In this document: one piece after another, positions 11,633 to 24,047 of the stretch
Layout of the letters: every line of letters begins with the position of its first letter
Numbering within the stretch: position 1 is the stretch's first letter
From: Thainema sp.
Lineage (GTDB): Bacteria > Cyanobacteriota > Cyanobacteriia > Phormidesmidales > Phormidesmidaceae
Length of the DNA: 64,000 nucleotides
Direction of reading: 5' to 3'
Assembly: GCA_052168235.1 (NCBI GenBank)
Contig: JBQLZK010000001.1
Coordinates: 32,001-96,000, forward strand
Notes under the pieces: model-generated
Database searches by the model: none
What the model was told of the DNA's origin: nothing
What the model saw: the letters and a program-made list of their open reading frames with translations, nothing else
Position numbers and translations under genes: made by a program

Positions 11633-11754
11633 AGATTCACCGAGAAACGCATTCGGTATTCATACAAAGTCCGAGTAAAACCGTGCTTTATTTTCATAGA
11701 AATAAAGCGTTTTTTACACACGGACTTGATACAAGCCGTCAGGAGATCCGCATT

Positions 11755-14448
11755 GTGACCCAGGAGTTTCATCTATCCATTACCCCCGTTGGCCAAGATA
11801 CCTACTTGATTCGTACAGAGCGTATGGCGACGGGAGTGCGTATTGCTGAAGAACAAGTGACTTGGCCGATTGAGCGCTGGTTACAGCAAACTCGTCAAGG
11901 ATTGGACGATCCGATTTTGTCCATTCTTCAGCAGCCCTTTGCCCGTCCAGATGCAGATTTATCCGGTGACGCGGATGCGCCGCAGAGTCTGCTGGTTCTG
12001 GGGCAGGAACTCTATACGGCTCTTTTTCAAGGGTCGGTGCGCGATAGCTGGATGGCGGCCCAAAGTATTGCGCAGCATCGGCGTGAAGGGTTGCGGCTGC
12101 GGGTCGGCTTGCCGGAGGCACGGCTGCATCAGTTGCCCTGGGAAGTGCTGCACGATGGCGATCGTCCGCTGGCAACGGGAACGGATATTGTCTTTTCGCG
12201 CTATCAGGTAGAACGGAGCAGCCCAACCTTTAGCCCCCATCCCTGGCAAAAGCGCTCGGAGCAGCCGCTGCGTATCCTGATGGTGACTGCCGCACCGACC
12301 GATCAAGAACGGCTCCTACTGCGGCAGGAATTTCAGCAGCTTTCGCAAGAACTGGTGCGATCGCAGTCGCCCCTCTTGATTGCGGATGCGCCAACCGTAG
12401 AAATCAAGCTGCTGGAACAGCCAGGACGAGCGGAGTTGACTCAAGCTTTGGAGCAGGGTAACTATCAGGTTTTTCACTATGCTGGCCACAGCGATCCGGG
12501 GCCTTTGGGTGGCAGTCTGTATTTGGTCAATTCCAAAACCGGGCTGACCGAAATTCTCAATGGTGAAGATTTAGCAGGATTGCTCGTCAACAACGGCATT
12601 CGCATGGCGGTGCTCAATTCCTGTCGCGGCAACTATGACGCTGATCCAGGGTTGGCTGCGGAAAATGGCCAGCGGAATTTAGCGCAGGCTCTGCTGCGGC
12701 GTGGTGTTCCTGGTGTACTGGCGATGGCTGAGCGGATTCCCGACGAGGTGGCTATCACGCTGTCGCGCCTGTTCTACCGCAATTTAAAGCAGGGCTATCC
12801 GGTGGATTTGAGCCTTAGTCGAGCACGGCAGGGTTTGATCTCGGCCTATGGTTCTCAGCAGCTCTACTGGGCGCTGCCCGTTCTATATCTTCATCACCAG
12901 TTTGATGGCTATGTGGCTGCCGCAACCACTGACGCTGGCCTACCGCTGATGGCGGGCTACGACAGCCTGGATTTGGATGCGACGGCAAATTGGCATGATC
13001 CAGAGTTTGCCGATGCGATCGCAGAAGCAGGCATCCAAGTGGGTATTAACGATGAGCTATCGCAACTGGAATCTGCCCCATTTGCGTCCGAGTGGGATGA
13101 TGAGTCGCTGCGGCCTTGGCTGGATGCTCAGCCCACTCAGTCAGAGGCTGGTTCAGAAGCTGCACCTGCCGAGTGGCCTGCGACCCAGTCCGGTTTGCCC
13201 TCTGGGTCAGATGTCAGCGCATTGGCCGATGAGCTAGATCAGGACACTAGCCGCTATGCCGATGATGCCGCCACGGTTGCCAACCTGATTGAACAACTCT
13301 CACATACAGAATCCAGCGCGGCTCCTACGACTGAGCCGTCCGTTCGTGCGTCTCAAGACGAGATCTTGCTGCCGGACGCATCTTCCCAGCGGGTTTCGAC
13401 CCTTTATCGAGATTGGACACAGCCACCAGCCGTAGATCAACCTGGCGCAAACCCAGAATTACCTTATCCATCAGAATTACCTTATCCAAATGAAGCGGGT
13501 TCGGCTGCAGCTTATCCATCTGCATCACCATCCTCAGGTGAATCGAATCAGCCTCAAAATCCTAGAAATCGCGATCGCAAGTTGCTCTGGGCCGGAATTG
13601 GCGCAGGCGTGGTCAGTATTTTGGCGGCGGCATTACTCAGCACGGCAGTGCTGCATCTCGCCAGCCAGAATGGGCGATCGCCGGGAATTTTAGACGATAT
13701 TGAGCAGGTACCCGATCCCATTCAGTCCATGTCCTCCGATCAGTTAGCAGAACAGACGACAGGCGATTTGACGACGATTGCGCTCGTGCGGCTCCAAAAC
13801 GGTAATGTAGACTCCGCTGCCGATGCGGTTGAAGTGCTGCTCGATCGCGGCGCACTGCCCCAAGCCGAAACCGTTTTGGCTGAAGTTCCCTCGTCTCTGC
13901 TGAATGATCCAACGATCAACTTCCTCAAGGGACGTTTGGCCTGGCAGTTTATAGAGGTTGGTAATGCAGATTACAGCGCTAGCGATGCCCGTCGCTACTG
14001 GGAAGCTGCGGTGGCGGATGAGTCGGAAAACCCGCTCTATCAGATTGCGCTCGGTTTTGCCTATTACGCAGAAGACCGCTTTGAGGTTGCTGCCCAGACT
14101 TGGCTCAATGCTCTGTCGATGATTGAAGAACAACAAACTGCCGCGCTCAAACAGCAAATCCCTAATTATGCGCCCGATTCGGAGGAATACGCTTTGGTTG
14201 AGCCTTCGCTGACTGATGATGATCACGCCTTAACTGCCTATGCTGGACTGGCGCTGGCCTCTGCACAACTGGCTCAAAGCCAGCCCGATCCCATTCAAAC
14301 CACCATGCTCAGTAAAGCACACAAGCTTTATCGCACGGTGATTAGCAATGATGCAGAGCAGTTCCAAACCCTCAAGCTGGCGCAAAACTGGCTCTGGAGC
14401 GAATCCGCGATCGCAGACTGGCAAACCCTGCCCAATTTGTTTAACTAG
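11755..14448 (+). CDS. hetF: HetF-family CHAT (caspase-like) protease with one TM helix and a C-terminal TPR-like region
   Basis: GTG start after AGGAGA gives the typical HetF N-terminus 'MTQEFHLSITPVG'. Catalytic dyad motifs 'HYAGH' and 'LNSC'; acidic linker; TM helix. Confidence 0.8.
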   Translation: MTQEFHLSITPVGQDTYLIRTERMATGVRIAEEQVTWPIERWLQQTRQGLDDPILSILQQPFARPDADLSGDADAPQSLLVLGQELYTALFQGSVRDSWMAAQSIAQHRREGLRLRVGLPEARLHQLPWEVLHDGDRPLATGTDIVFSRYQVERSSPTFSPHPWQKRSEQPLRILMVTAAPTDQERLLLRQEFQQLSQELVRSQSPLLIADAPTVEIKLLEQPGRAELTQALEQGNYQVFHYAGHSDPGPLGGSLYLVNSKTGLTEILNGEDLAGLLVNNGIRMAVLNSCRGNYDADPGLAAENGQRNLAQALLRRGVPGVLAMAERIPDEVAITLSRLFYRNLKQGYPVDLSLSRARQGLISAYGSQQLYWALPVLYLHHQFDGYVAAATTDAGLPLMAGYDSLDLDATANWHDPEFADAIAEAGIQVGINDELSQLESAPFASEWDDESLRPWLDAQPTQSEAGSEAAPAEWPATQSGLPSGSDVSALADELDQDTSRYADDAATVANLIEQLSHTESSAAPTTEPSVRASQDEILLPDASSQRVSTLYRDWTQPPAVDQPGANPELPYPSELPYPNEAGSAAAYPSASPSSGESNQPQNPRNRDRKLLWAGIGAGVVSILAAALLSTAVLHLASQNGRSPGILDDIEQVPDPIQSMSSDQLAEQTTGDLTTIALVRLQNGNVDSAADAVEVLLDRGALPQAETVLAEVPSSLLNDPTINFLKGRLAWQFIEVGNADYSASDARRYWEAAVADESENPLYQIALGFAYYAEDRFEVAAQTWLNALSMIEEQQTAALKQQIPNYAPDSEEYALVEPSLTDDDHALTAYAGLALASAQLAQSQPDPIQTTMLSKAHKLYRTVISNDAEQFQTLKLAQNWLWSESAIADWQTLPNLFN

Positions 14449-16553: not shown

Positions 16554-16973
16554 CTAGTCCATACTCTGATTCAGATGATCGAGAGAACTCGAAACAGCCG
16601 ATTGAGACATCGAGCTTAGCGTCGGAAATACATACAGCACATCACCGTGATCGTTCGGCTCAAAATTGGCGTAAAACTCACGGGCGCGGGCATTCAGAAA
16701 CTCTCTCGCTTCTGGCCCAGTCAGGTTGGTATGCACCGCAAAATCAAACACCGTAATGCGACCCTGGTTTGCCTGGAGCAACTGGTAAAACGTTTGCTGA
16801 AGAAACGTCTGCTTAGCCTTGATGGTTCGCTGTCGTCGTCGCCAAAATCGCCATCCAATTAGCCCCAGCGTAATGGCCAGGAAAATCGGCCAGTAGCTTT
16901 TAATCAGCAGCACCAGCAGCACCAGCACAACGCCGATGCCAATTCCAGCAGCACAGCCCATTTCTAAGCCCAT
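16554..16973 (-). CDS. Hypothetical membrane protein (2 TM, C-terminal winged-helix-like segment)
   Basis: Two hydrophobic helices, then 'GRITVFDFA...EAREFLNARAREF.ANFE', a pattern I recall in cyanobacterial hypotheticals. Confidence 0.6.
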   Translation of the reverse strand: MGLEMGCAAGIGIGVVLVLLVLLIKSYWPIFLAITLGLIGWRFWRRRQRTIKAKQTFLQQTFYQLLQANQGRITVFDFAVHTNLTGPEAREFLNARAREFYANFEPNDHGDVLYVFPTLSSMSQSAVSSSLDHLNQSMD

Positions 16974-17295
16974 ACGTTCCTGTGACAGTTTTCCATACAG
17001 TAGTTTCGGCGGACGATGGCTCACATTAAAATGGTGTTCAAAGCTTAAATATTTTCAACTTTATAGTAATACCTAAGCCTAGTTGCAAATACGGACGTAT
17101 TACGAATAATCCGTATTTTCCCGGTCTTCGACACCTGCTGTTGAAATCTTGTATTGTGGAAAACCAGCACCTGACGCGAGCTAATTAACTGACTGTTGCA
17201 TCGTCCGTCGCTTCGCCCTTTTTCTAATATGAACCAAATTAACGAAATCGTAGGGTGCCTCATGCCAGTTTTATAACAGACGAACCGAGCCGTGG

Positions 17296-19359
17296 ATGCG
17301 TAGTATGAACGATTCCAATCTGCGATCGCTAACCAGCGCCATTCAGGATATTGCATCCCCGTTTCGGACGTACTTAGTGGATCTGCACGAGAAGTACCAG
17401 TCTTTCACCGAGGGTAAGCCTGCCAATCCGTTAGCCGGAATTGAACCACCCGCAGCCGACTTTTTTGGCGTGTGTATTGCCACGGTCGATGGTCAGGTGT
17501 ATGAGGTAGGCCACTGCCACCAGCCCTTTGCAATTCAAGCCCTGTCTCGTGCCCTGCTCTATGGCCTAGCACTGGAAGATCACGGACGAGAGCAGGTAAG
17601 TCACTACGTTGGCATCGAACCCTATCGCGAACTAGAAACGCTGATTGGGTTGAACAGCAATAAACATCGTCCCCATAACCCGCTGACGGACACTGGGGCA
17701 ATCGTGATTGCGGGATTGATCAAAGGTGACAGCTTGGTCAGTCGGTTTAAGCGGGTGATGGCGATGCTGAGCCGCTACGCCGGACGGGATATTTTGACCA
17801 GTCTGCCAGTTTTTCTCTCGCAAAAAGAGCAGGGTGAGCGGGAACAAGCGATCGCACATTTGATGGTGAAAATGGGGCTGGTGCAGCGCCCGATAACCGA
17901 TGTGCTCGACCTCTATTTTCAGTGCAGTTCGGTCATGGTTAACAGTCGCGACTTGGCGGTGATTGCGGCAACTCTGGCCAATGGCGGGTTGAATCCAGTT
18001 ACGGGAGAACGGGCCATTCAGGAACAGTACATTCAGGACGTAATTAGCGTTATCTTGACCTGCGGCATGCATGACTCGTCTGGGGAATGGACATATCAGG
18101 TTGGCATTCCCGCCCAGGCTGAACCGAATGGCGGCGTGATGGGAATCGTGCCCCAAAAGCAGGGAATTGGCATCTTTTCGCCTCGGCTGGATGACCACGG
18201 CAATAGCATTCGCGGCATGAAAGTCTGCCAGGATTTGGCCACCGATCACCATCTGCATGTGTTCAATATTTATGAAAAGAACCAGCAGATGGCGAAATAT
18301 ATCGAGCAGGTTGAAAAAATTACCGCTGCTGCGATCGCAGTTAAACAGGGCACGTTTGCGGCCAACAGTCTCGATAGCCTTGTCCAGCGTGCTGATGAGT
18401 TAGGCGAACTGGCGCGGGTGTTCACCAACATGGTGGAAACGATTCAGGCTCGCGAACAAGAGCTGAGTGCCGCCAATCGGCAGTTAGAGGCGCTTGTCAA
18501 TGCCTACGGGCGGTTTGTGCCCCATGAGTACCTAAAATTTCTGCATAAGGATAGCATCGTTGATGTCGATCTAGGCGACTACGTTAGTACCGAAATGGCG
18601 GTCATGTTCTCAGACATTCGCTCATTTACGGCACTGTCGGAATACATGACGCCGCAGGAAAGCTTTGACTTTATCAATGCCTATCTGGGGCACGTCGGCC
18701 CAGAAATTCACAGATATCACGGCATCACGATTAAGTATCTGGGAGATGGACTAATGGCCGTTTTCCCCAGTGGAGTGGATGATGCGATCGCAGCCGGACT
18801 GGCTAAGCTCAAGCGCTTGCAGGACTATAATCGGCAGCGCCAAGCGGCTGGTGAACCGTCCATCAACATCGGCATCGGCGTCCACGTTGGCCACATGATG
18901 ATTGGCATTATTGGCGAATCCAATCGGATGCAGGGCGATGCCTTTTCTGGCACGATTACGCTGACTGCGCGACTGGAAGGATTAACCAAATATTACGGGG
19001 TGCATCTTTTGGTCTCAGAAGACGCACTTAATCAGCTGCAGCGCCCAACCTACCAGTTTCGCTTTCTCGATCGCGCCATTGTCAAAGGCCGGACTGAACC
19101 CATCGGCGTTTATGAAGTGCTCAATGCTGAACCAGCGCCAATTCAGCAACTGAAGCAAGAAACAGCCACGCTATTTGATGAAGGGATTCAGCACTATTGC
19201 CAAGGCGACTTTGTCAAGGCCACTGCCTGTTTTAAGCAGGTTGTCACAATTAATCCGTTTGACCAAACCGCTCGGCTCTATCTCCATCGCATTCAGCAGT
19301 TGCAGGCAGAGGGTATTCCGAACAACTGGGCGGGTATTTGGACGTTTACCCAAAAATAA
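17296..19359 (+). CDS. Degenerate glutaminase-fold domain + HAMP-like linker + class III adenylate/guanylate cyclase + TPR-like tail
   Basis: Residues ~20-325 follow glutaminase A ('ATLANGGLNPVTGE', 'TCGM.D.SGEW', 'FSPRLD..GNSIRG'). HAMP-like 'ADELGELARVFTNM'. Cyclase motifs 'MFSDIRSFT', 'KYLGDGLMAVF', 'ARLEG', 'VKGR'. Start 17296 or 17305. Confidence 0.88.
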   Translation: MRSMNDSNLRSLTSAIQDIASPFRTYLVDLHEKYQSFTEGKPANPLAGIEPPAADFFGVCIATVDGQVYEVGHCHQPFAIQALSRALLYGLALEDHGREQVSHYVGIEPYRELETLIGLNSNKHRPHNPLTDTGAIVIAGLIKGDSLVSRFKRVMAMLSRYAGRDILTSLPVFLSQKEQGEREQAIAHLMVKMGLVQRPITDVLDLYFQCSSVMVNSRDLAVIAATLANGGLNPVTGERAIQEQYIQDVISVILTCGMHDSSGEWTYQVGIPAQAEPNGGVMGIVPQKQGIGIFSPRLDDHGNSIRGMKVCQDLATDHHLHVFNIYEKNQQMAKYIEQVEKITAAAIAVKQGTFAANSLDSLVQRADELGELARVFTNMVETIQAREQELSAANRQLEALVNAYGRFVPHEYLKFLHKDSIVDVDLGDYVSTEMAVMFSDIRSFTALSEYMTPQESFDFINAYLGHVGPEIHRYHGITIKYLGDGLMAVFPSGVDDAIAAGLAKLKRLQDYNRQRQAAGEPSINIGIGVHVGHMMIGIIGESNRMQGDAFSGTITLTARLEGLTKYYGVHLLVSEDALNQLQRPTYQFRFLDRAIVKGRTEPIGVYEVLNAEPAPIQQLKQETATLFDEGIQHYCQGDFVKATACFKQVVTINPFDQTARLYLHRIQQLQAEGIPNNWAGIWTFTQK

Positions 19360-21216: not shown

Positions 21217-21681
21217 ATGAATCAACCCTGGCAAGATCCGTTTATTATTCACCACACGCAGCGATTGCTCTACAGTTTTCAGCACTGGACAGGTCGGCCA
21301 CTGTTGGACGTTCAGGGTTCACCGCTTGAACTAGCTGAGCAGGTCTTTCACGCTCATCTGGCAGTTTTGTCTCACGGGACAGAAGCAGATCCGATTTTTA
21401 ACTATGGCAACCAGTTGGCGCTGCAAATTTGGGAGTTGACTTGGGCTGAATTTATCCAGATGCCATCCCGTAAAACTGCTGAAGTTGTTAATCAGGAAAC
21501 GCGATCGCAACTTCTCTCGACTGCCCAAAAGCAAGGTTATACCCCCTACTCGGGTGTTCGCATCTCCAGCACGGGCCGCCGCTTTCATATTGATGATGGC
21601 ATTCTCTGGAACGTGATTGACCCACAGGGCAATCTGCATGGCCAGGCGGCGATTTTCTCGCGTTACGAATATTTGCCGTAG
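21217..21681 (+). CDS. Stand-alone MEKHLA (PAS-like) domain protein
   Basis: 'SHGTEADPIFNYGNQLALQIWE', 'PSRKTAE', 'YSGVRISSTGRRF' motifs. Confidence 0.85.
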   Translation: MNQPWQDPFIIHHTQRLLYSFQHWTGRPLLDVQGSPLELAEQVFHAHLAVLSHGTEADPIFNYGNQLALQIWELTWAEFIQMPSRKTAEVVNQETRSQLLSTAQKQGYTPYSGVRISSTGRRFHIDDGILWNVIDPQGNLHGQAAIFSRYEYLP

Positions 21682-21944: not shown

Positions 21945-24047
21945 ATGCCCGGCCCGGCCATTCACCAAAACGGTATTTTTGCCAGTCACGTCTTTACCCG
22001 TCCATCAGCAAATCAAACCCTCACCTGTCCCATTTTGATTGTCGGTGGCTCAACCGCAGCCTATTCAGCCGCACTGACCGGCTTGAAATATAGCCAACTA
22101 GAGATTTATCTGGTACAGCCCCGACATATTGTAGGTGGCCAATTCACGACTCAAGGTTTACCGGCTTCGGACGATGGCAGCTTGATTCAGCAGGCGGCAA
22201 CTGGCGAAACAGTGGTGGGAGAGCGCTTTGCCCTTTCCCAGTCGCAGCGACAGTTTCGGCAGCGCCAACGCCAGCTCCAACCGCTACAGGGCGAGGTTGT
22301 TAGCAATCCAGGTGGCGGCTGGGTGAGTCCACTCTGTACAACGCCAATCGTGGCGGCTACGGCCCTGAATGATGCGATCGCACCGTTTTTGAATCAAAAT
22401 CGGCTTAAGTTAGTGCCGCATGCTGTGCCAATTCAGGTGTTGAAGACCAATTCTGCTGTGCGAGATCGCATGACAGGCGTTGTCTTCCGCGATACTCAGC
22501 GCAACTATACCTTTACAATTAGCGCGACTGTAATTATTGAAGCCACAGACTTAGGCGATTTGTTGGAACTGGGCAATATTCCGTCCCACGTTGGACAAGA
22601 ATCGCGTCAGCAAACCAATGAGCAGATTCTGCCAATGGTGCCGCATCCAGAATGTCAGCAGTCTTTCACCTACGGTGTTGCAGTCGAACGAGTGGCCGGA
22701 CGCAGTCAGGTCATGCCTGCTCCCAACACCGACTATGGCCGTGATCCATTTACGACAACCTATTACAAAAAATCAGGTGGAGAATGGAAGCTGCTCGATT
22801 TCTATCATGACTTTGGCCCCTTTCGCTATCGGCGTATGCTGCGACAGCAACCAGCCGAGAAAAAGATTAGTGACGGAGATATTACGGTACTCAACTGGGG
22901 GGTCACTCATGATCCAGCAGGCAACTTGTACTGCGGCAATGACTATCGACCCGGTTATTTAGTTGGTGTTGATGCAGCCACTCGCCAGCGCTATTTGCGA
23001 GAAGGCTACAGTCGCGCCCGCGCCTATGTCCGCTATTTGCAAACGAACGGTTTGGCCGAACTGCAGCCCCGTGGCGACGTAATGTGGTCATCTGATGGAG
23101 TTGCCCTCGACCCGTATATTCGGGAAGCTCGCCGAGGACAGGCGCTGACCACGATTCGGCACGAAGATGTGGCAGAGGCATTTTTCCCAAATGCGGCCCG
23201 AGGCACCTGTTTTGATGACAGCGTTGGGATTGGTGACTATCACTACATTGATTTACACGGCAATGACGCGAGAGGGCATGTTGCGCCATTGGGTGCATTT
23301 TTATTGGCTAAGCCTTTTTCGCTGCCGTTAGGAGCTTTGGTTCCACGACAAACGGATGGCTTGATTCTGTCGTCTAAAAGTATTGGCACGACACATTTGA
23401 CCAATGCCGTTTATCGGCTGCATCCAATTGAATGGGCCATTGGCGAGGCCAGCGGGTTTCTGGCCGTGTTCACCATTTGGACAGGACTGCAGCCGCGTGA
23501 AATTGCTCAATCGAGGGCAATGGTGCGGAAGCTCCAGGGATTTTTGACCCGCAATGGCATACCGATTTTTTGGTTTGATGATGTGGCCCATGATGATCCA
23601 GATTTTGAGCCGATTCAGGTGCTGGCTACGGCGGAAATTGTGCGGAGTGAGCTGAATGGTGCGCTGCATTTTCGGCCAGAGGCCAGCGTCAATCGGGCTG
23701 TGGTTTGTGCAGCACTGGTGAATTTGTTAGATTTAGCCATCACCGTGCCGCAGCAGCCTACTTTTGTAGATGTGCCTAGAACACACTGGGCCTACGGGGT
23801 AATTGAAACACTGGCCGATAAAAACATTGTCAGCGGGGTTGATCCGGGACTGTTTGCGCCTGATCGACCCATGATTCGAGAGCATCTCTCGTTTCTCATC
23901 GCTCGCGTATTGGAGCGCACGAATTTGGTCGTGGCCTACGATGTGTTTCAGCGCACAGGGACGCCCAAAGATAGAGCCGTGCTGAAGCGGCGAGATCTAT
24001 CGCGGATTTTCTATGAGCTGCTGAAAGCGAAACTAGACATTACCTGA
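21945..24047 (+). CDS. FAD-dependent oxidoreductase with a C-terminal S-layer homology (SLH) domain
   Basis: Rossmann motif 'ILIVGGSTAAYSAA', 'IEATDLGDL', 'PYIREARR', 'RLHPIEWAIGEA'; SLH 'FVDVPRTHWAY..IETL...IVSG'. Confidence 0.8.
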   Translation: MPGPAIHQNGIFASHVFTRPSANQTLTCPILIVGGSTAAYSAALTGLKYSQLEIYLVQPRHIVGGQFTTQGLPASDDGSLIQQAATGETVVGERFALSQSQRQFRQRQRQLQPLQGEVVSNPGGGWVSPLCTTPIVAATALNDAIAPFLNQNRLKLVPHAVPIQVLKTNSAVRDRMTGVVFRDTQRNYTFTISATVIIEATDLGDLLELGNIPSHVGQESRQQTNEQILPMVPHPECQQSFTYGVAVERVAGRSQVMPAPNTDYGRDPFTTTYYKKSGGEWKLLDFYHDFGPFRYRRMLRQQPAEKKISDGDITVLNWGVTHDPAGNLYCGNDYRPGYLVGVDAATRQRYLREGYSRARAYVRYLQTNGLAELQPRGDVMWSSDGVALDPYIREARRGQALTTIRHEDVAEAFFPNAARGTCFDDSVGIGDYHYIDLHGNDARGHVAPLGAFLLAKPFSLPLGALVPRQTDGLILSSKSIGTTHLTNAVYRLHPIEWAIGEASGFLAVFTIWTGLQPREIAQSRAMVRKLQGFLTRNGIPIFWFDDVAHDDPDFEPIQVLATAEIVRSELNGALHFRPEASVNRAVVCAALVNLLDLAITVPQQPTFVDVPRTHWAYGVIETLADKNIVSGVDPGLFAPDRPMIREHLSFLIARVLERTNLVVAYDVFQRTGTPKDRAVLKRRDLSRIFYELLKAKLDIT

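Follow-up and report, generated by a model that had tools for sequence, protein, structure and literature searches.

A predicted pseudo-glutaminase domain placed ahead of HAMP and a class III nucleotide cyclase in the cyanobacterium Thainema sp.

Background

We report a 687-amino-acid (aa) protein in which a domain with the glutaminase A fold and a dismantled active site is followed in frame by a HAMP domain, a class III nucleotide cyclase and a TPR-like tail. Its gene lies on the plus strand of a 64,000-nucleotide stretch of DNA from the cyanobacterium Thainema sp. (GenBank assembly GCA_052168235.1, contig JBQLZK010000001.1, positions 32,001 to 96,000), which is called the window throughout and supplies all coordinates given here. 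The reading that we favour, with a probability of roughly 0.55, is that the protein is a soluble, homodimeric adenylate cyclase of class III in which a portable dimeric pseudoenzyme provides input and pairing. This architecture, the loss of the catalytic residues, purifying selection on the protein, the single origin of the domain, a shift in the constraint acting on it and the exchange of modular outputs are documented below.

In the proposed mechanism, the dead domain would join a HAMP four-helix bundle through a near-invariant linker, a helix in heptad register would lead on into the cyclase, and the conformation of the cyclase dimer, and hence its activity, would be set by the dead domain. 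The signal is more likely to be a change in the conformation of the domain or in its oligomeric state, the binding of a partner, or at most a lineage-specific ligand, than a conserved ligand of a retuned pocket.

Architecture and predicted fold

A preliminary description of the window had covered positions 17296-18280, which correspond to aa 1-328 of the 687-aa protein. The features of the gene are as follows.

17296 to 19359, plus strand: the whole open reading frame, 687 aa, with pseudo-glutaminase, HAMP, class III cyclase and TPR-like tail
17296 to 18285, plus strand: pseudo-glutaminase domain, aa 1-330 (Pfam core aa 48-323), in which the glutaminase-A fold surrounds a dismantled active site
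17536 to 17550, plus strand: QALSR, formerly the catalytic motif Q-S-x-x-K, aa 81-85, placed by alignment to glutaminase C (GAC)
18268 to 18285, plus strand: IYEKNQ, the junction of the glutaminase fold with HAMP helix 1, aa 325-330
18310 to 18447, plus strand: HAMP domain, aa 339-384, with helix AS1, connector and helix AS2 carrying the motif DELGxLARVF
18448 to 18591, plus strand: signalling helix or linker from HAMP AS2 to the cyclase, aa 385-432, containing LSAANRQ
18592 to 19101, plus strand: catalytic domain of a class III nucleotide cyclase (PF00211), aa 433-602
18958 to 18960, plus strand: codon of Thr555, where according to PDB alignments the transition-state Asn canonically stands
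19111 to 19356, plus strand: TPR-like helical tail, aa 606-687, from a weak TPR_2 match and AlphaFold2 (AF2) helices

The Pfam match to Glutaminase (PF04960) covered aa 48-323 with 295 bits (E 6.9e-88), and that to Guanylate_cyc (PF00211) covered aa 433-602 with 68.3 bits against a cut-off of 21.9 (E 8.7e-19). The match to HAMP (PF00672, aa 339-384) was marginal, at 25.0 bits against a cut-off of 25 (E 2.4e-5), and a weak TPR_2 match at aa 625-654 (E 0.0017) fell under the cut-off. Neither the tail nor Thr555 of the cyclase half had been mentioned in the preliminary description.

The full-length AF2 model had a mean predicted local distance difference test score (pLDDT) of 89.1, exceeding 90 over most of the glutaminase-like domain. 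It placed helices at aa 322-351, 356-363 and 368-405 in the HAMP and linker region, and further ones between aa 614 and 672 in the tail. In a Foldseek comparison, the pseudo-glutaminase domain matched human glutaminase (3vp0) with a target TM-score of 0.91, a root mean square deviation of 2.6 A and 35% identity. No transmembrane segment was found in the 687 aa, the highest 19-aa Kyte-Doolittle window being 1.39, and HAMP, which usually follows a transmembrane helix, is here preceded by a globular cytoplasmic domain. Soluble HAMP domains are known.

Loss of the glutaminase active site

The domain was aligned residue by residue to human and mouse glutaminase C, and the canonical positions are given below in GAC/KGA numbering. 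QSCVK reads QALSR in the window, so that the nucleophile S286 is A82 and the general base K289 is R85. NPMVNAG reads NPLTDTG (N335 to D132), SERESGxRN reads SQKEQGERE (E381 to Q176, N388 to E183), GMYD reads GMHD (Y466 to H259), and PAKSG reads PAQAE (K481 to Q274, S482 to A275, G483 to E276). The YIPQL segment is lost and reads NPLAG, with Y249 aligned to P45, although the alignment is uncertain in this YIPEL segment. Every motif change listed in the preliminary description was thus confirmed. Among the substrate contacts Y249, Q285, N335, E381, N388, Y414 and Y466, only Q285 (Q81) and Y414 (Y207) are kept.

The significance of these changes can be read from the human enzyme. In KGA (PMC4929687), S286 and K289 form the catalytic dyad, the ligand is held by Tyr249, Gln285, Asn335, Glu381, Asn388, Tyr414, Tyr466 and Val484, and most of the activity is lost when Tyr249, Ser286, Lys289 or Tyr466 is changed to alanine. 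All four of these residues are replaced in the window protein. The changes are also far beyond chance, because S286, K289, N335, Y466 and K481 were invariant in all 139 canonical glutaminase domains aligned. The window domain scored under all six NCBIfam glutaminase equivalog cut-offs, including TIGR03814 (242.9 against 255.4), NF009020 (247.7 against 395) and NF002134 (280.5 against 557).

We considered whether Arg85 together with another nucleophile might still hydrolyse glutamine, which would make the protein a bifunctional glutaminase-cyclase. The fold, Q81 and Y207 are kept, and cyclase-less relatives described below retain the serine and exceed the TIGR03814 cut-off. Against this stand the alanine at the nucleophile position of the window protein, the loss of all four residues whose replacement by alanine cripples KGA (PMC4929687) and the invariance of the lysine in the canonical domains, and we regard residual glutaminase activity as extremely improbable. 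The claim that the domain has lost its catalytic dyad and most of its substrate contacts, made previously from the motifs, therefore stands on Ala82 and Arg85 together with the KGA mutant data (PMC4929687). It is well supported by these comparisons that the N-terminal 330 residues form a catalytically dead domain, paralogous to the glutaminase A of the same cell.

Family members, selection and origin

A search of 5.8 billion protein clusters, with 120 matches listed, returned at least eight full-length proteins of the same architecture, of which P0001 was 96% and P0002-P0008 were 52-56% identical to the window protein; PF00672 was precomputed in five of the eight orthologue clusters. In addition, six short forms of about 438 aa were found (P0043, P0048, P0068, P0124, L024:8001-9317 and L025:187-1503), in which a glutaminase-like domain with the Lys to Arg change and the same HAMP lead to a coiled-coil end (IEIDKTK...SFQNLKQKL) with no cyclase. 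Three of these came from the same search, P0124 from the phmmer search described below, and L024 and L025 from the genomes taken one per species. In all, 184 glutaminase-domain segments were aligned, including 139 with the canonical Ser and Lys and 14 non-redundant family members (eight fused and six short).

The catalytic lysine was replaced by arginine in 14 of the 14 family members and retained in 139 of the 139 canonical domains, and the Asn388 position held Glu, Asp or Ala throughout the family (Glu or Asp in 13 of 14). An orthologue from the same genus (L005), identical at 657 of 687 aa and with a synonymous divergence (dS) of 0.50, was compared with the window gene by the Nei-Gojobori method. 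The ratio of non-synonymous to synonymous substitution rates (dN/dS) was 0.036 for aa 1-330, from 9 non-synonymous and 62 synonymous differences, and 0.033 for HAMP and linker, 0.030 for the cyclase and 0.044 for the TPR tail. Since two further PF04960 genes, both with intact S-x-x-K and other motifs, were present in the 7.54-Mb genome (205 contigs), the genome needs no enzyme from the pseudo-glutaminase copy.

A 48-row IQ-TREE phylogeny of the glutaminase domains grouped 15 pseudo-domains, nine fused and six without a cyclase, in one clade with a support of 99.3 in the Shimodaira-Hasegawa approximate likelihood ratio test, and FastTree agreed. The sister of this clade was the genome's own canonical 343-aa glutaminase A (support 99). 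On these trees a single origin of the Lys-to-Arg clade is shown. The short forms were basal within it, with P0124 nested among the fusions, and a clade restricted to the fused domains was rejected by the approximately unbiased (AU) test (p 0.012).

It is thus well supported, as far as sequence comparison reaches, that the loss is ancient, selected and evolutionarily fixed and does not represent the decay of a single copy. The preliminary description had argued against random decay, naming as the contrary outcome that orthologues keep S-x-x-K and proposing a low dN/dS as a check. Arginine in all 14 family members speaks against that outcome, and the ratio in aa 1-330 proved as low as that in the cyclase domain. 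The expectation that orthologues would share its substitutions held for the Lys to Arg change and failed for positions 286, 335 and 381, which vary among the fused members.

Two of the short forms, P0043 (321 bits) and P0068 (294 bits), exceed the 'glutaminase A' cut-off of TIGR03814 (255.4) despite having no catalytic lysine. Fusions and cyclase-less short forms of this kind are probably mis-named 'glutaminase' or 'glutaminase A' in public records.

HAMP linker and predicted homodimer

The glutaminase fold passes into HAMP through a near-invariant linker, HLF-IYEKNQ-x-M-xx-YIEQVEKIT, of which IYEKNQ (aa 325-330) hardly varies in the family and is missing from most canonical glutaminases. Downstream of HAMP, LSAANRQ is absent from the P0002-P0008 fusions, so that the linker to the cyclase differs between the two fusion lineages by exactly seven residues, or one heptad; the linker length in the window protein is that common to its stand-alone relatives.

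A homodimer model of aa 1-440 gave an ipSAE of 0.49 (median of three runs) against 0.00 for the best control, with a partner pLDDT of at least 81 and at least 54% contact agreement between runs. It passed a mark that was reached by 20 of 30 solved homo-pairs and by 1 of 23 single chains. In the predicted interface, HAMP AS1 packs symmetrically against AS2 of the partner, and a ladder of a/d positions with 3-4 spacing is formed by self-contacts at residues 376, 379, 383, 386, 390 and 393, which had the least expected error, the interface continuing to 407-408. The glutaminase fold contributes residues 247-270, 286-288 and 321-330, which include the IYEKNQ junction. From this model we infer that the protein would dimerise and that HAMP would relay a signal.

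Constraint in the old pocket and at the predicted interface

The residues that once formed the active site proved variable. Across the eight non-redundant fused members, the nucleophile has become A, S, L, P, T, A, T, S, and the variation extends into a subclade in which the identity of cyclase halves reaches 86%. The residues at position 335 are D, T, T, T, S, T, T, A, those at position 381 are Q, M, S, N, S, T, S, L, and the Y466 position is H or G. The short forms keep more of the pocket, with Ser in six of six, Tyr466 in four of six and Asn335 in three of six.

Among the 48 positions conserved to at least 90% in canonical domains, 33 were kept in at least half of the fused members and 15 were lost, and the latter included eight of the nine pocket positions in the set. 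Retention in the fused members was 0.17 at these nine positions and 0.80 at the 39 others. The mean frequency of the commonest residue in the family (14 rows) was 0.91 at the predicted interface, 0.56 in the pocket and 0.69 elsewhere, the corresponding values for the canonical domains (139 rows) being 0.60, 0.88 and 0.58. Residues specific to the family at the predicted interface were Q247, L254, T266, Q287 and K288. Taken together, the alignment and the dimer model show that constraint has shifted away from the active site and towards the surface predicted to face the partner subunit and HAMP. Selection would thus keep the fold and the surface towards subunit and HAMP, and not the glutamine pocket, so that a conserved ligand of a retuned pocket is less likely.

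This bears on an alternative in which the retuned pocket binds a metabolite other than glutamine and its occupancy is relayed through HAMP, the protein then being a cytoplasmic one-component metabolite sensor. Several changes are indeed fixed, namely Arg85 in 14 of 14, Glu or Asp at the N388 position in 13 of 14 and Gln274 in seven of eight fused members; Tyr207 is kept, D132, Q176 and E183 of the window protein recur in the short forms P0043 and P0048, purifying selection on the domain as a whole is strong, and the domain occupies the input position ahead of HAMP. Within the family, nevertheless, no part of the domain is less conserved than the pocket, with a changing nucleophile position and with D, T, S or A at position 335 and Q, M, S, N, T or L at position 381. 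In KGA, N335 contacts the alpha-carboxylate and E381 the amino group of the ligand (PMC4929687), and their replacement by Asp and Gln disfavours an amino acid bound in the canonical pose. We therefore consider a conserved metabolite in a retuned pocket unlikely. The earlier view that the pocket swaps (N to D, E to Q and N to E) reflect a retuned specificity found no support, given the variability at positions 335, 381 and the nucleophile and the pocket retention of 0.17.

The cyclase domain

The best PDB matches of the cyclase half were Cya2 (2w01, E 8e-17) and CyaB (3r5g), and OaPAC was also aligned. In these alignments the metal-binding Asp440 and Asp484 are present, as are the ATP-type substrate pair Lys480 and Asp548 and the transition-state Arg559, and the transition-state Asn is replaced by Thr555. 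A Lys/Asp pair specifies ATP (PMC4215837). These residues suggest that the substrate would be ATP. The activity under regulation would be the synthesis of cyclic AMP (cAMP).

Threonine at the transition-state position was found in 14 of 148 related rows with a readable motif (11 VT and 3 IT; 174 rows in total), among them the stand-alone cyclases P0037, P0038, P0040, P0041, P0042, P0046 and P0067; the other fusions keep Asn. In Ma1120, a class III cyclase that is active, Ala occupies this position, and the A164N change lowers the activity (PMC4215837). Thr555 was accordingly rejected as proof of a dead cyclase, being a trait of the subfamily with a precedent in Ma1120.

The same residue raises the question of a protein that is dead in both halves and serves as a non-catalytic scaffold or as the heterodimer partner of another cyclase, for which partners would be at hand in the genome. 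Five other canonical residues (D440, D484, K480, D548 and R559) are intact, seven stand-alone cyclases share the threonine, Ma1120 works with Ala and worse with Asn (PMC4215837), and the cyclase domain has evolved at a dN/dS of 0.030. An inactive cyclase is in our view very unlikely.

The 7.54-Mb genome contains 18 PF00211 matches, a very large cyclic-nucleotide signalling repertoire.

Modularity and exchange of outputs

In 21 other top matches scanned with Pfam, the same HAMP-cyclase-TPR module follows REC, GAF, dCache and HAMP, histidine kinase (HK) and REC, PAS, 7TMR-DISM or kinase/GAF inputs. The dead glutaminase thus occupies the place of an input domain, since related cyclases carry REC, GAF, Cache or PAS domains there, and the in-frame placement ahead of HAMP and the cyclase noted in the preliminary description was borne out. 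In P0037-P0042 the same HAMP is preceded by about 60 residues of coiled coil instead of a globular input. The TPR-like tail is common to this cyclase subfamily.

The C-terminal part of the window protein (aa 335-687) is 62-64% identical to the stand-alone cyclases P0037-P0041 and closer to them than to the other fusions. In a 68-row IQ-TREE phylogeny of the C-terminal halves, from which G171 and L086 were left out as rows identical to others, forcing the nine fused halves together (9 against 59) cost 36.7 log-likelihood units, and their monophyly was rejected (AU p 0.0012). The pseudo-glutaminase and HAMP are thereby shown, on phylogenetic grounds, to behave as a portable cassette that has been combined with outputs more than once. 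The order of steps suggested by the sequences is that the Lys to Arg change came first, that erosion of the pocket and a new constraint on the surface followed, and that exchange of the cassette between outputs came last.

The fusion is rare, with one 50% cluster among the 44 checked of the 150 best-scoring representatives. A phmmer search of 1.84 billion representatives gave 64,022 matches, P0008 being the sole collinear full-length match among the best 150, and a Pfam scan of 43 other top matches revealed none that combined PF04960 with PF00211. A query spanning the junction (aa 230-470) gave full-length matches in 2 of 173 genomes of the host order, the window's own and that of one congener; the others held only separate halves. 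With one genome for each of 185,579 species, the best 80 of 553 relatives included at least one full-length fusion (L086) and at least two short forms. An origin by fusion of split genes, that is, a short form adjoining a cyclase gene, was not seen at L024 or L025.

These observations also bear on the possibility that the dead glutaminase is merely a stable dimer that holds two cyclase domains together and passes no signal. Class III cyclases depend on dimerisation, conservation is highest at the predicted interface with the partner and HAMP, and the pocket is unconserved. However, the close relatives P0037-P0042 manage with some 60 residues of coiled coil, it would be costly to maintain 330 residues at a dN/dS of 0.036 merely for pairing, HAMP intervenes between domain and output, and the cassette exists in proteins without any cyclase. 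A passive role of this kind thus appears doubtful.

The input-and-pairing reading that we favour draws its support from the architecture, the HAMP domain, a place in the protein equivalent to that of known inputs, and the strong constraint. Several points weigh against it. A constitutive scaffold would fit most of the same data, and the change of the transition-state Asn to Thr555 may leave the cyclase with a low output. Some pocket changes are fixed, and because Arg85 (14 of 14), Glu183 (eight of eight fused) and Gln274 (seven of eight fused) are conserved, a remodelled functional site is possible. Five of the eight non-redundant fused rows belong to one subclade, which inflates the apparent conservation, the interface positions were taken from a predicted model, and the dN/dS values come from a single genome pair. 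Glutaminase dimers and HAMP bundles have already been solved, and the passing of the dimer model may reflect likeness to them. The group submitted to the AU test was defined by architecture, but the FastTree result had already been seen.

Relation to known systems

A literature search found nothing on a glutaminase-HAMP-cyclase architecture or on any PF04960 pseudoenzyme. Many kinds of input domain are known among class III cyclases, but this search found no description of a soluble HAMP fed by a dead copy of a housekeeping amidohydrolase.

The glutaminase A/KGA enzymes (human KGA/GAC, E. coli YbaS, B. subtilis YbgJ and Micrococcus Mglu) share the fold of the pseudo-glutaminase domain, which is 35% identical to GAC; in the window protein the Ser-Lys dyad and Y249, N335, E381, N388 and Y466 are replaced, and the domain is fused to signalling domains. 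Among HAMP-linked class III adenylate cyclases, the mycobacterial Rv3645/Rv1319c type consists of six transmembrane helices, HAMP and cyclase. As in that type, HAMP stands directly upstream of the cyclase with a helical linker whose register matters, but the protein described here is soluble, and its HAMP is fed by a globular cytoplasmic pseudoenzyme and not by membrane helices.

The closest relatives of the output module are cyanobacterial proteins with REC, GAF, Cache or coiled coil ahead of HAMP, cyclase and TPR (P0106, P0065, P0145, P0132 and P0037-P0042). Their output modules are 55-64% identical to that of the window protein, and they share the YIEQVEKIT and DELGxLARVF elements of HAMP, the RFVPHEYL element and the TPR tail. 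Known signalling domains or a short coiled coil serve as inputs in these proteins, and none has a glutaminase domain. Rv1900c of M. tuberculosis carries an enzyme-like domain fused N-terminally to a class III cyclase. That domain is alpha/beta-hydrolase-like and thus of another fold, it lacks a following HAMP, and it is not known to be a dead housekeeping paralogue.

The glutaminase fold is also paired with cyclic-nucleotide signalling in Glutaminase-STAS-cNMP_binding proteins (for example P0211). There an intact glutaminase is the regulated output and the domain binding cyclic nucleoside monophosphate (cNMP) is the input, whereas here a dead glutaminase stands upstream of cNMP synthesis. In tandem glutaminases, finally, the fold is linked to a second, often dead, glutaminase domain.

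Such tandem double-glutaminases, of about 600-670 aa, were encountered among the aligned proteins. Their first domain is canonical, and in the second the catalytic Lys is replaced by Asn (S-x-x-N or A-x-x-N), as seen in P0009, P0016, P0026, P0028, P0033, P0036, P0130, P0142, P0143, P0149, P0168, P0184, P0190, P0197 and P0210. Judging by these motifs, dead glutaminase domains partnering live ones seem to be common, and no discussion of them was found in the literature searched.

Genomic surroundings

The cyclase gene stands alone in the window, with neighbours mostly on the opposite strand (CHAT, CpcT, metallophosphoesterase, Zn-ribbon protein and MEKHLA). No conserved neighbourhood was found across the loci compared (window, L086, L024 and L025), and functional inference from an operon was rejected for want of conserved neighbours. 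At L086 the neighbours encode FtsH, REC-GGDEF-EAL, RusA, RecQ and a HAMP histidine kinase. At L024 and L025, two large genes for two-partner-secretion exoproteins with a TPS domain, one of them also with a PPC domain, lie downstream of the short-form gene in the same orientation (L024:9671-16635 and L025:1692-8931); these are the only two TPS-linked loci seen and are closely related, so that the linkage is not established.

Three metatranscriptome runs of one study contained contigs of a relative about 91% identical, which places these contigs in an RNA library and is not proof of transcription. One contig of 5657 nucleotides spans 17192-19355 with 194 differences, and a DNA run (X1) held four pieces at 99% identity or more. 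The similarity to the metatranscriptome contig is limited to 17192-19355, almost exactly the ends of the gene. The neighbourhood in the 91% relative is therefore different, and the gene behaves as a self-contained unit.

Other genes of the window include the following.

16554 to 17024, minus strand: 156-aa open reading frame without a Pfam match, hydrophobic in an N-terminal segment and divergent from the cyclase gene, with a spacer of 271 bp between the two
11683 to 14448, plus strand: 921-aa protein with a caspase-like CHAT domain (PF12770), a long low-complexity middle, a predicted membrane helix and a TPR-like C-terminus
21217 to 21681, plus strand: stand-alone MEKHLA-domain protein (PF08670, E 7.5e-55)
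21945 to 24047, plus strand: 700-aa FAD-dependent oxidoreductase with an S-layer homology (SLH) domain, downstream of the MEKHLA gene

The last of these is an unusual union of a flavoenzyme with a cell-wall anchor.

Conclusions

Beyond the role as input and pairing module of an adenylate cyclase dimer, a wider and more speculative proposal, which we put forward only tentatively, is that the Lys-to-Arg pseudo-glutaminase with its HAMP would be an unrecognised portable cytoplasmic sensor cassette of beta-lactamase-fold origin. By changing at its dimer interface it would signal a cue of nitrogen status, and it would have been plugged at least twice into adenylate cyclases, tying cAMP to nitrogen metabolism in some cyanobacteria. 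Candidate cues would be a glutamine-related metabolite, phosphate, pH or contact with an active glutaminase, and the arrangement may be likened to the control of true glutaminases by oligomerisation.

The family offers a natural example of an enzyme turned signalling module, in which the evolutionary steps appear to be visible and the active paralogue is still in the genome. If a nitrogen-related cue is indeed sensed, the cassette would give a direct handle on the coupling of cAMP to metabolism in cyanobacteria.

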